Source of the DNA: a virus
Virus record (IMG/VR): IMGVR_UViG_3300045988_177309
Span: 96,170 to 160,169 of that record
DNA length: 64,000 nt
Strand: one strand, 5' to 3'
Part shown: positions 20,753-25,514 of the stretch, one piece after another
How positions within the stretch are numbered: the first letter of the stretch is position 1
Layout of the letters: every line of letters begins with the position of its first letter
Translations under genes and position numbers: made by a program
Notes under the pieces: generated by a model
Seen by the model: the letters and a program-made list of their open reading frames with translations, nothing else
The model's database searches: none
What the model was told of the DNA's origin: nothing

Positions 20753-20783
20753 AATTCAAGCTTAAATAATACATGGACAAAAT
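20753..20783. repeat. left inverted repeat (AATTCAAGCTTAAATAAT-ac-ATGGACAAAAT) of the cassette-1 element
   Basis: Its reverse complement matches 25485-25514 at 29/31 positions. Confidence 0.7.
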
Positions 20784-20788
20784 ATTAT

Positions 20789-22174
20789 TTATTCTTCTAT
20801 TTGTGAACGCTTATCAATTTCTTCAAATGTTTCAATGAACTTTTGGATTTCTGTTTGAGATTGTTTCTCTTCTTGGGCAATTTGCTTTATAGCATCTATA
20901 ATTCCATGATCTTTATACCATTGTATTAAACAGCGAGTTTTTGCTTTGAACATTTTACAAACTGAATGTAGAGGCATAAAAGGCTCATCACCATATTCAT
21001 ATTGAGCGCCAAAGCATCCTCTAATACAACTATTAACATTCCAACAAGTATCACAACCATGATGAGTTTTTCTTTGATTAGAAAGCAAAATTTTAGTTGC
21101 TATTACTGGATTGTTAGCTTCTATATCAATTATTTCATTATTTTTTGTAATAAATTTTCCATACAAAAATTCAGGATATGCAGTGCGATGACAAGGAGCA
21201 ATGGAAAGATCTCCCAATCTTACTGTAAGTTGATAAGCTACACTACAAGTAGGAAATTGAGTTGCATCTAAAAGCAGAAAATTGGTATATCCATTTCGTT
21301 CTTCGTTTAAACCTAAAGACATTTTTGCAAATTTTCTAGGATCGCTATCATATCGATGTTCAAAATGATAATCACAATAAAATTTTAAAAATTCTTGATA
21401 GTGTGAAATCGCTTCATCAGTCCAATCATCATTTCTAACCTCTAATGTCATTACTTGCTGCAATACATTAAAATCATATTGTTCACACATATCAACAAAC
21501 CACTTATAGTTTTCAATCCATCTATCAACTGAACATGCGGCAATCATAGGATGAGCGCAAAATCCATTTTTTTTCATAAATTGAAATGATTTATGATAAA
21601 AATTCATATCTCGTTTATGGTATATTTTTTGAGGACGAGAAAAATCTTCAATAATATAACCGTCGATAGATGCACTTAGCGCCAGTCGTATATTATAATT
21701 TTTGTTAAAATCATCAATATAATTTTGTATTTTTTCAGTCATTTCTTGGCTATGAATGAAAGAAAAATTAGTGGGAACAATGATTTCTTCTAACTCGTTT
21801 AATCCTTGTTCTTTATATTTTTTAATTATATCTAACACATTAAAAAATATCTGAGTGCCTACAATTTCTCCACTAAATATATCAATATGTCTTAAATATG
21901 GCCAATTTTTTACAGCGTATTTTAATAATATATCAAGATTATTAAGAATATTTTTTTCATTACGCAATTCAGCAGGATAAAGTTTATCGCCATATCGATT
22001 TAAATAACAATATTCACATTTTTGATTACACTCAGAAGTTACATATAATTCTAAAGAACTAACACGAGAGCCGCCATTTAAATCTGATGAACAATTTTTA
22101 TCACTCCATCCAGAGAAAAAAGCTGTATCAAGAATAAATTTTAAGAGTTCATTATTTTCACTTTTAAAAGACAT
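20789..22174 (-). CDS. radical SAM / SPASM-domain enzyme A1
   Basis: CxxxCxxC motif (SECNQKCEYC) plus a C-terminal Cys cluster (CHRTAYPEF...GCDTCWNVNSCIRGCFG). Paralog of 48375-49856 and 55609-57006. Confidence 0.85.
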   Translation of the reverse strand: MSFKSENNELLKFILDTAFFSGWSDKNCSSDLNGGSRVSSLELYVTSECNQKCEYCYLNRYGDKLYPAELRNEKNILNNLDILLKYAVKNWPYLRHIDIFSGEIVGTQIFFNVLDIIKKYKEQGLNELEEIIVPTNFSFIHSQEMTEKIQNYIDDFNKNYNIRLALSASIDGYIIEDFSRPQKIYHKRDMNFYHKSFQFMKKNGFCAHPMIAACSVDRWIENYKWFVDMCEQYDFNVLQQVMTLEVRNDDWTDEAISHYQEFLKFYCDYHFEHRYDSDPRKFAKMSLGLNEERNGYTNFLLLDATQFPTCSVAYQLTVRLGDLSIAPCHRTAYPEFLYGKFITKNNEIIDIEANNPVIATKILLSNQRKTHHGCDTCWNVNSCIRGCFGAQYEYGDEPFMPLHSVCKMFKAKTRCLIQWYKDHGIIDAIKQIAQEEKQSQTEIQKFIETFEEIDKRSQIEE

Positions 22175-22177
22175 GTA

Positions 22178-22474
22178 TTAAACTTGCTCCTCTTTACGAT
22201 AAAATGTTAAAAATTCATAAACGGCATTATTTTCATTTTTAATTATAGTATTATATACAGTATGGTCAATGCTATAAGGAATATCATTTATTATTAATAT
22301 AAAATCATGAATCCCATATACCTCTTCTCGCATAATATTAATAATATTTCTTTTATTATCATTTTTTATATAAGAAAATACTATTTTAGAATCCTCAATT
22401 GTTTGCAAACATTTTTCTGGAATATTGTCATGAGAATGTTCTTTTTTTCCATCAATAATATAACAAGTTTTCAT
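22178..22474 (-). CDS. hypothetical protein (98 aa) between the rSAM genes
   Basis: Track ORF, tightly packed. Possibly a RiPP accessory/recognition protein. Confidence 0.5.
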   Translation of the reverse strand: MKTCYIIDGKKEHSHDNIPEKCLQTIEDSKIVFSYIKNDNKRNIINIMREEVYGIHDFILIINDIPYSIDHTVYNTIIKNENNAVYEFLTFYRKEEQV

Positions 22475-22479
22475 ATTTT

Positions 22480-24058: not shown

Positions 24059-24372
24059 GATACGAAGTATAAACTTTCTATAAAATTATTTTCTGTATTT
24101 ACGCGACGAATAGCATAAATTAAACGATTACAAACTTGAGTATATATTGCAACACCATCATCATTGTAAATGGTAATCACTAATGAATTTAAATCTTTGA
24201 AATTTAAACTCATATTTTTAAGGGTTGGATCGACAGGATTTGTATTGGTAATTTGGCCAATAGATGAAAAACGTGTTTCGGCTAAAGCCTCTTTATCACC
24301 AAATTCAATATTCCAAAAATTCGGAATATCATAGGTTTGATTATTTGTATCACATGAAATACCAATTTTCAT
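24055..24372 (-). CDS. hypothetical protein (105 aa)
   Basis: Track ORF. Confidence 0.55.
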   Translation of the reverse strand: MKIGISCDTNNQTYDIPNFWNIEFGDKEALAETRFSSIGQITNTNPVDPTLKNMSLNFKDLNSLVITIYNDDGVAIYTQVCNRLIYAIRRVNTENNFIESLYFVS

Positions 24373-24815
24373 ATGTTTTTATTCTCCTTATTACGTTTAT
24401 TTGCAAGATATGCCATATTTTTCTGTCTTTCAACAAGCAAAGAGTTATTCAATAAAAAACCAGGGTCTTTATAAACTTCAGGAAAAGCGACTTTTCGATA
24501 TTTTAAACCATTTGCACCAGTATAATATACTTCAGTCAATTTTAAATTGCCATTATCAATATATTTATGTTCATGTATTTGATATGGCTTTGTAAGATAA
24601 TCTAATGAAGAAACAAAATAGCCGCTATCATAATTATTATCATTTACAACAGGAATAACTTGGTATTTTCCTTGGCGAGTAATTATTTTTTCTAATAAAA
24701 TATCGCAAATATCAGATAATTGTTGCTTTTCTTCTTCCCCCAATTGATTTTGTTTTAATATATTATTAATATTAAATAAAATTTCAACAGGCTCTTGATT
24801 TATATTAATATCCAT
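24369..24815 (-). CDS. hypothetical protein (148 aa)
   Basis: Track ORF with RBS AAAAGGGTG. Confidence 0.55.
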   Translation of the reverse strand: MDININQEPVEILFNINNILKQNQLGEEEKQQLSDICDILLEKIITRQGKYQVIPVVNDNNYDSGYFVSSLDYLTKPYQIHEHKYIDNGNLKLTEVYYTGANGLKYRKVAFPEVYKDPGFLLNNSLLVERQKNMAYLANKRNKENKNI

Positions 24816-24827
24816 TTATTCACCCTT

Positions 24828-25460
24828 TTATTCTGAAAATGTATAAGTGGTTTCATTTGAATTTGTTGTTTGACTATAAGTTGTGCCGGCTCTATATGAA
24901 ATTTCTGAATATGTAGTTGTTGCGCTATTAGCGGATTGGCTACAATCACTACCATATACAACGTGGCAACCGCATTTAGAACTATTACCGCTTTGAGCAT
25001 TTCTTGAAGTGTTTTGAGTGCAATTGCGGCCATTACTGGTGTTTGAATAAGAAGTACCAGCTCTATTAGAAGATTCACTATAAGTGGTTTGATTAGAATG
25101 AGAGGTCTAAGTGTATAGTGTACCAGCAGTATTAACAACTCTTGAATAATGTGCTTTTGCTTCCATAGATAAGAGAGATGCAGCTGCCGCATTTAAAGTT
25201 TCATCTTTTAAGGGTGAACCTGAAGATAATTCACCGCTAGTAATTGTCCATTTTACACAAGTCGCCAAATGCTCTTCTGTCTGAGCGGCAACAAATTTAT
25301 TATAAAGTGTTGTTATTTCTGTGGAAAGTGGATAAACACCCACTTCGCTACCAGATACATTCCAATCCCAACTTAAACCATGTGTAGTATAAACGTTTTG
25401 TAAGCGAGTAATAAGCGATGACAAATCAGTATATAGAATTGGAGTATTTTCAGCGGCCAT
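24828..25460 (-). CDS. precursor-like protein P1 (about 210 aa): conserved ...EAKAHYSRV motif, Ser/Thr/Asn/Cys-rich C-terminal region; 1 TAG (25107)
   Basis: The track ORF ends at a TAG. Read-through adds ...NGRNCTQNTSRNAQSGNSSKCGCHVVYGSDCSQSANS...TTYTFSE, ending at TAA 24828. RBS AAAGGAGGTG. Confidence 0.65.
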
Positions 25461-25484
25461 ACTACACCTCCTTTATTTTATTTT

Positions 25485-25514
25485 TATTTTGTCCATAATT
25501 ATTTAAGCTTGAAT
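25485..25514. repeat. right inverted repeat of the cassette-1 element
   Basis: Plus strand ATTTTGTCCATAATTATTTAAGCTTGAATT is the reverse complement of 20753-20783. Confidence 0.7.

Follow-up and report, generated by a model that had tools for sequence, protein, structure and literature searches.

Within a stretch of viral DNA of 64,000 nucleotides (nt) (positions 96,170 to 160,169 of IMG/VR virus record IMGVR_UViG_3300045988_177309; hereafter the window), a cassette of seven genes, two of them for radical S-adenosylmethionine (SAM) enzymes, is enclosed by an inverted repeat of ~30 base pairs (bp) and has coding sequence of a PhoH-family gene on either side. The locus raises the question of what this repeat is and whether the gene around it is broken. 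An earlier description made from the letters of the window (the sequence-only reading) proposed a mobile or invertible module that had inserted into, or recombined within, a phoH2-like gene. Our analysis gives a different answer. The segment from 25721 to 20711 on the minus strand is very probably a self-splicing group I intron that carries the seven genes as cargo in its helix P8, and the inverted repeat is, judged by its pairing and homology, the two strands of this helix in the intron RNA.

The interrupted gene and the elements needed to read it are as follows.

25722..26580, minus strand: exon 1 of phoH (PIN-PhoH, PhoH2-type), 286 codons plus 1 nt, ending in the U of the P1 U.G pair
20292..20710, minus strand: exon 2 of phoH, starting with UUUAUCC and running from (F)YPGTRDEK... 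to the stop codon
41669..41743, minus strand: tRNA with anticodon CUA (amber suppressor), needed for reading phoH exon 1
20257..20287, unstranded: terminator-like hairpin just past the phoH stop codon, the sole clear one in the unit

All six in-frame 'stops' in the N-terminal part of PhoH are TAG, and in-frame TAG codons also occur in many other window genes. Given these codons and the encoded tRNA-CUA, amber is read as sense in this phage. Exon 2 and the cargo genes c2, c3, c5, c6 and c7 are free of TAG. The true break of the phoH frame is a UGA at 25722-25720, located directly after ...NSARLG, with YPGTRDEK following in the downstream piece. When 5,011 nt (25721 to 20711) are removed in silico, a PIN-PhoH protein of 425 amino acids (aa) results, which matches phrog_2765 (PhoH-like) end to end (E 1.9e-78) and in which the Pfam PhoH domain forms one unbroken stretch over the predicted exon junction. 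The gene is therefore not fragmented, as had been supposed, since its TAGs are recoded and removal of the intron restores an intact protein. PhoH pieces do lie outside both arms of the repeat on the minus strand, as described before, but the gene breaks at 25722/20710 and not at the open reading frame (ORF) ends assigned to them. The 146-aa ORF previously listed as a C-terminal fragment (GTG at 20732) starts inside the loop of intron helix P9, lacks a ribosome-binding site and was rejected as a gene-calling artefact. The intron site is the conserved LGF(Y/L)PG motif of the phage PIN-PhoH gene.

The intron itself consists of the following parts.

20711..25721, minus strand: whole group I intron (5,011 nt), its first base the G that follows the 5' splice site and its last omega-G at 20711
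25709..25728, minus strand: P1, in which exon CUUGGGU (25728-25722) pairs with the guide GCUCAAG (25715-25709), with U.G at the splice site
25516..25708, minus strand: intron 5' core, from the RF00028 flank match and RNAalifold helices
25703-25697 and 25522-25516, minus strand: P3 5' strand and P3 3' strand
25693-25688 with 25603-25598, minus strand: P4; 25683-25607: P5/P5a-c; 25596-25575: P6
25568-25563, minus strand: P7 5' strand; 25543-25527: P7.2 hairpin
25486..25515, minus strand: P8 5' strand (right repeat of the earlier description), from arm pairing and core alignment
20753..20783, minus strand: P8 3' strand (left repeat of the earlier description), from arm pairing and core alignment
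20711..20752, minus strand: intron 3' end, with J8/7 and the P7 3' strand AAGAUAUAGUC (20752-20742)
20738-20719, minus strand: P9 hairpin with GAAA loop, then AGUAAUCG ending in omega-G (20711)

The two flanks of the cassette were scanned separately with the Rfam model RF00028, for which the gathering score is 50 bits. The 5' flank alone matched at 25711-25515, from P3 to P3' (model positions 43-158, 28.4 bits, E 1.8e-5), and the 3' flank alone matched with J8/7-P7 and the P9 hairpin (24.5 bits, E 1.3e-4). The model places P8 between these two matched parts, hence the repeat arms are the P8 strands. The splice sites lie beyond the arms, 206 nt outside the right one (25516-25721) and 42 nt outside the left one (20711-20752), and the in-frame UGA straddles the 5' splice site. 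The locus thus possesses the core helices P3-P9 with the P3/P7 pseudoknot, the J8/7-P7 consensus, the U.G pair of P1, omega-G and a restored reading frame, and it is classified as a group I intron. It looks IA-like because of its P7.1/P7.2-type insertions.

The arms (left 20753-20783, right 25486-25515) pair over 18 perfect bp, a 1-nt bulge with G.U, and 11 further perfect bp. The left arm stands as first reported, whereas the right arm, given before as 25485-25514, was one base off. A perfect inverted repeat of at least 18 bp arose in one of 200 dinucleotide shuffles of the 8-kb region, the adjoining 11 bp not being counted, and the 18-mer has only two sites in the window at a tolerance of up to 3 mismatches. 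As the sequence-only reading stated, the repeats delimit the cassette exactly. All seven cargo ORFs, on the minus strand, fit between them, with the c1 start 24-25 nt from the right arm and the c7 stop codon 5 nt from the left arm. A second 18-bp perfect inverted repeat in the window (33403/34870) was examined and rejected, being a pair of terminator-like hairpins with no intron.

Introns at the same phoH site were identified in relatives. The exon-2 product, used as a query, retrieved dozens of 146-aa relatives and many longer, unsplit ones; the former have their ORF start in the P9 loop and are hence split at the same position. ORF-less introns are present in L005 (375 nt), L013 (327 nt) and L015 (311 nt). 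A single LAGLIDADG ORF occupies the same P8 loop in L007 (1,318-nt intron) and L010 (1,307-nt intron), and the 763-nt intron of L016 contains a truncated one; the intron ORF product scores 31 bits with Pfam LAGLIDADG_3 at a cutoff of 22.5. The introns with the radical SAM cassette are found in the window, in the IMG/VR relative REL (~90% identical to the window), in L014, L026 and L027 (the last 99.6% identical to the window), and on the partial contigs L011 and L012. Relatives with an intact phoH2, whose comparison the sequence-only reading had advised, exist as well: L002 (intron-less, PhoH 49% identical to that of the window), L017, and GenBank phages of the Bacillus group, in which the PhoH2 genes are uninterrupted. 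In L017, which is intron-less and TAG-recoded, AKLGFYPGTRDEK encodes AKLG-F-YPGTRDEK, exactly the predicted junction. The empty site lacking the intron reads CTAGGT followed directly by TTTTATCC. Among relatives in IMG/VR and a metagenome collection, the P8/J8/7 junction sequence occurs at this locus only, and a megablast of 19000-27500 against GenBank phages gave no match.

We also observed remnants of the LAGLIDADG gene in the ORF-less introns. The intron of L005 retains the last ~80 nt of the gene (about 9880-9990), while in L015 (about 6920-6968) the start-codon region is joined to the gene end. Judged by these remnants, the ORF-less introns arose via deletion of the endonuclease gene.

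Covariation was analyzed in alignment A2, which comprises nine intron cores with P8 loops trimmed and exon context included. Unguided RNAalifold recovered P1, P3, P4, P5/5a-c, P6, P7.2, P8 and P9, with compensatory changes in 31 of the 73 pairs. For the pairing counts P7 was added as a pseudoknot, and the controls were partners slid by 1 to 3 columns and 500 shuffles. Paired cells reach 99.4%, compared with 31-44% for slid partners, and 31 pairs are changed on both sides, compared with 2-6; none of the 500 shuffles attained the observed pairing or covariation values. Four of the covarying pairs belong to P8. In L013, L015 and L016, silent changes in the exon strand of P1 are matched by changes in the guide: GGG to GGA is accompanied by a change of the guide from GCUCAAG to GUUCAAG, and CUU to CUA/UUA is accompanied by GCUCAAG to GCUCUAG. 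Substitutions among the cargo-bearing genomes leave P6, P7.2, P9 and P8 paired.

The relatives also indicate how the long helix may have formed. The 5' arm of the window is homologous to the P8 5' strand of the relatives followed by UUGGACAAAA. In the endonuclease-bearing introns, the partner of UUGGACAAAA is UUGUCCAA, which lies over 1 kb away, close to where the endonuclease ORF ends, and the endonuclease stop codon is the UAA of UAAGAUAUAGUC. This distal pairing covaries by a compensated insertion (UUGGACAA/UUGUCCAA in L007 versus UGGGACAA/UUGUCCCA in L010), thus a distal clamp already bracketed the endonuclease ORF. The cargo-bearing lineage has lost the ~50 nt that separate the clamp from the proximal P8 strand, and its two helices are continuous as a single duplex; this strong helix would be a fusion of the proximal P8 stem with the earlier distal clamp (UGGACAAAAU/AUUUUGUCCA). 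The P8 duplex has a predicted energy of -33.5 to -36.0 kcal/mol in cargo-bearing introns, compared with -12.8 to -17.9 kcal/mol for arm pairing in endonuclease-bearing ones, which would suit a ribozyme core that has to assemble over 4.7 kb. In the ORF-less relatives, P8 measures 10-14 bp.

Next to the 5' arm, a 14-nt sequence upstream of c1, AAAATAAAGGAGGT (25461-25480), is identical to the ribosome-binding region of the LAGLIDADG gene in L010 (about 1415-1445). This may place the 5' edge of the cargo swap between the ribosome-binding site and the start codon of the endonuclease gene, or the identity could be a chance likeness of Shine-Dalgarno regions.

The cargo consists of seven genes.

24828..25460, minus strand: c1, 210 aa with a single TAG read through, else 117 aa; strong Shine-Dalgarno sequence upstream
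24815-24369, 24372-24055 and 24058-23807, minus strand: c2, c3 and c4, small proteins with no family match
22480..23805, minus strand: c5, radical SAM enzyme with a CxxxCxxC motif, distant kin of peptide maturases
22178..22474, minus strand: c6, 98 aa, no family match
20789..22174, minus strand: c7, radical SAM/SPASM enzyme, best match a PapB-type maturase model, far under the curated cutoff

The c5 and c7 proteins are distantly related to the peptide maturases PapB, HxsB and DynA, in all cases with scores far under the curated cutoffs. The tail of c1 is rich in Ser, Thr, Tyr and Asn, and on the basis of its sequence c1 is a candidate substrate protein of the cassette. Searches with Pfam, PHROGs, NCBIfam and PADLOC found no endonuclease family match, transposase or recombinase among the cargo proteins, and tnpA/tnpB domains are likewise absent from them. 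Orthologs of c1-c7 were identified in the same order in L023/L024, with no phoH and no intron motif nearby; identities to this free-standing cassette are 51% for c1, 56% for c2, 68% for c5 and 70% for c7. In L025, the orthologous cassette, likewise with neither phoH nor an intron close by, is located between Mtd_N tail-fibre-like genes and the portal/protease region. Since the cassette is free-standing in the relatives examined, it represents an older unit that entered the intron in one lineage.

The free-standing cassettes of L023 (5621-10368) and L025 (5174-10380) adjoin genes for tail-fibre-like (Mtd_N), portal and prohead-protease proteins, a hint that virion or structural proteins are the targets of the cassette. 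The window contains two further radical SAM cassettes, cassettes 2 and 3, which share paired radical SAM genes with the intron-borne cassette 1 at 21-33% identity. Both were checked and, in agreement with the sequence-only reading, have no bounding repeats; they have no intron signal or intron halves either. The first protein in each of the three cassettes (24828-25460, 51170-51796 and 58250-58840, minus strand) is ~200 aa long, resembles the other two in its N-terminal region and has a tail rich in Ser/Thr/Tyr/Asn/Phe. From these sequence features, it is possible that the first proteins are substrates of the paired radical SAM enzymes.

Purifying selection acts on the phoH gene as well as on the cargo. 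In cargo-bearing copies, the ratio of nonsynonymous to synonymous substitution rates (dN/dS) is 0.06-0.12 for the spliced phoH and 0.03-0.09 for exon 2 alone, and no cargo-bearing copy has a frameshift in the spliced phoH frame. The ratio is 0.04-0.13 for c1, c2, c5 and c7, and 0.08-0.14 for c1 over its full 210-codon frame.

Evidence for exchange between phages comes from the short partial contigs L011 and L012 only, and concerns the 3' side of the intron only. Over c7, the 3' end of the intron and ~200 nt of exon 2, both contigs match the window at 95-96% identity, and L012 matches L014 at 98-99.6%. Past this breakpoint, identity in L011/L012 drops to ~74% or lower, followed by unrelated downstream DNA. 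Both a presence/absence polymorphism at one site and a breakpoint resembling exon co-conversion, on the 3' side, were thus observed. The breakpoint looks like a co-conversion tract, which suggests from the sequences compared that intron and cargo were exchanged between distinct phages; ordinary phage mosaicism is the alternative.

Based on these observations, we propose the following mechanism. A single transcript would include exon 1, the intron 5' core, the cargo, the intron 3' end and exon 2; the sole clear terminator-like hairpin, past the phoH stop codon, fits one transcription unit, and a promoter scan gave counts no higher than shuffled sequences. The UGA over the 5' splice site would halt ribosomes ahead of the core. 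After synthesis of the 3' arm, formation of the long P8 duplex would bring both halves of the catalytic core into contact over a distance of 4.7 kb. Guanosine would attack 3' of the U in the U.G pair of P1, and exon joining after omega-G would restore the 425-aa PhoH; either the precursor or the excised intron would serve as the messenger for the cargo. Historically, a LAGLIDADG-bearing intron would have lost its endonuclease gene and gained a cassette that is free-standing in other phages. It can be speculated, with slightly more doubt than confidence, that the intron swapped a homing endonuclease for an adaptive radical SAM cassette and so became a splice-masked vehicle within a conserved gene, held by a reinforced ~30-bp P8 clamp, with cargo expression perhaps tied to when phoH is transcribed, as well as to splicing and amber suppression.

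Several observations weigh against the proposed intron and its mobility. Rfam scans of the whole window, at the gathering threshold and at E<=0.05, returned tRNAs and a weak twister-like match only, and missed the intron. As the 4.7-kb insert in P8 is too long for the model to bridge, the halves each score well below 50 bits and no single Rfam match reaches that value. Ribosomes could melt the P8 helix, since c7 ends so close to its 3' strand, and exon 2 could in principle be translated separately. The cargo has no recognizable endonuclease to account for transfer. Finally, identity profiles of the window against REL and L014 run evenly through flanks and cargo without a step at the splice sites, a pattern compatible with vertical descent in this clade.

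Among the other explanations, the one that survives best would retain the ribozyme but have it splice in trans, the precursor being cut or separately initiated within the cargo and the halves rejoining via the ~30-bp P8, like the non-conventional splicing route suggested for the giant mitochondrial intron ND5-717 (described below). The unusual stability of the P8 duplex (-34 to -36 kcal/mol) is in line with this possibility, which we nevertheless consider unlikely, as there is no sign of processing sites or internal promoters, the promoter scan being at chance level, and 5 kb is far below the 18-19 kb of ND5-717, so cis-splicing stays plausible. It is quite improbable that the intron is dead, that is, that splicing was lost, that phoH is a pseudogene or yields two polypeptides, and that the cassette sits in a remnant. 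A translated loop of 4.7 kb should hamper folding, and gene callers report the 146-aa exon-2 ORF, but the GTG of this ORF lies in the P9 loop as noted above. In addition, substitutions preserve the helices, P1, U.G, J8/7-P7 and omega-G are intact, the spliced frame is constrained and free of frameshifts, and P8 has been strengthened rather than decayed.

Almost no credence remains for the repeats as transposon ends or as recombination sites of an invertible segment that broke phoH: although they bracket the cassette exactly and have PhoH coding sequence on both sides, the arms have their homologs in the P8 strands of ORF-less and endonuclease-bearing introns, with which they covary as RNA pairs, the gene breaks beyond the arms at canonical splice sites, the arm flanks GCGCAAGA and AAGATAT show no target-site duplication, the 18-mer has no further copies in the window, the P8/J8/7 junction is confined to one locus, the orientation is the same in seven of seven independent assemblies, and family searches found no transposase in the cargo and no recombinase in the cargo or beside the segment. 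What holds of the mobile module proposed earlier is the insertion into a phoH2-type gene and the membership in a class of mobile elements; the repeats are not its ends and the gene is not broken.

The group I intron with P8-borne cargo can be compared with several known systems. Phage group I introns with a homing-endonuclease ORF in a peripheral loop include those of T4 td, nrdB and nrdD, as well as introns of SPO1 and Twort, and the P8 loop is one of the usual homes for a homing-endonuclease gene. To our knowledge, phage group I introns are generally regarded as carrying either nothing or one endonuclease gene that serves the intron only. The window intron shares with the endonuclease-bearing ones the ribozyme class, insertion at a conserved motif, exact restoration of the ORF, ORF location in a stem-loop, and patchy presence; the LAGLIDADG-bearing phoH introns of L007 and L010 are its true homologs at the same site. 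In contrast to their single gene of ~0.95 kb, its cargo comprises seven genes over 4.7 kb with no recognizable endonuclease, and its P8 is a continuous ~30-bp duplex. The element is therefore a member of the known group I class and a homolog of endonuclease-bearing phage introns, and the unusual part is the cargo.

The nearest architectural analog appears to be the giant group I intron ND5-717 of hexacoral mitochondria, which holds 2-16 non-mobility genes in P8 and has a compact conserved core (PMC6545197). The likeness, several non-mobility genes between the P8 strands (seven in the window), is one of architecture and analogy only: ND5-717 is obligatory and vertically inherited, ends in A and not in omega-G, is back-spliced in corallimorpharians and has core host genes as cargo (PMC6545197). 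IStrons, in which a group I intron is fused to an IS200/IS605- or IS607-family transposon and splicing masks the insertion (PMC10690162), are another case of a group I intron in the bacterial world with more than one protein gene. However, the IStron cargo is its own tnpA, tnpB and omega RNA at the 3' end, with transposon ends that coincide with the splice sites, whereas the window intron has biosynthetic-type genes inside P8 and nothing like tnpA/tnpB. Homing endonuclease gene (HEG)-islands are phage DNA regions bracketed by free-standing endonuclease genes (PMC10448857). They are similar in that cargo moved between phages by homing-type recombination leaves conserved tracts in divergent genomes, and differ in that no intron is involved there, while no endonuclease is seen in the window cassette. 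A full-text literature search in one library, which is not proof of novelty, found no phage group I intron with multi-gene or radical SAM cargo, nor such a phoH intron.

Further features were observed in the window and in its relatives. A gyrB-like gene in the window (15555-18682, minus strand) is split into a 580-aa N-terminal part (16940-18682), a GIY-YIG ORF (15871-16746) and a 131-aa piece (15555-15950) that carries the GyrB C-terminal domain. The group I intron model gave no match on the split region 15400-17200; the split reflects either a free-standing endonuclease gene or an intron beyond the reach of the model. A twister-P1 ribozyme-like match (59789-59844, minus strand; 38.9 bits, gathering score 67.2, E 1.3e-5 in a 14-kb scan) is located between the tRNA-Met and tRNA-Lys genes. 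Relatives contain LAGLIDADG inteins in the RNA ligase gene and in gyrA (L005 3033-5378; L007 2393-4738 and 16593-20192), as well as a GIY-YIG gene between gyrB and gyrA, so this phage group is dense in selfish elements.

If the proposed reading is correct, essential or conserved genes can harbor accessory gene modules within introns, which may also spread them, and a ribozyme core would tolerate a loop of nearly 5 kb given a strengthened bracketing helix. Gene callers would then mislabel such loci as broken genes with an 'island', above all in phages with recoded stop codons. The homologous series at one phoH site, from ORF-less introns through endonuclease-bearing ones to the 4.7-kb cargo, would provide a natural test of how loop size and P8 strength affect splicing.

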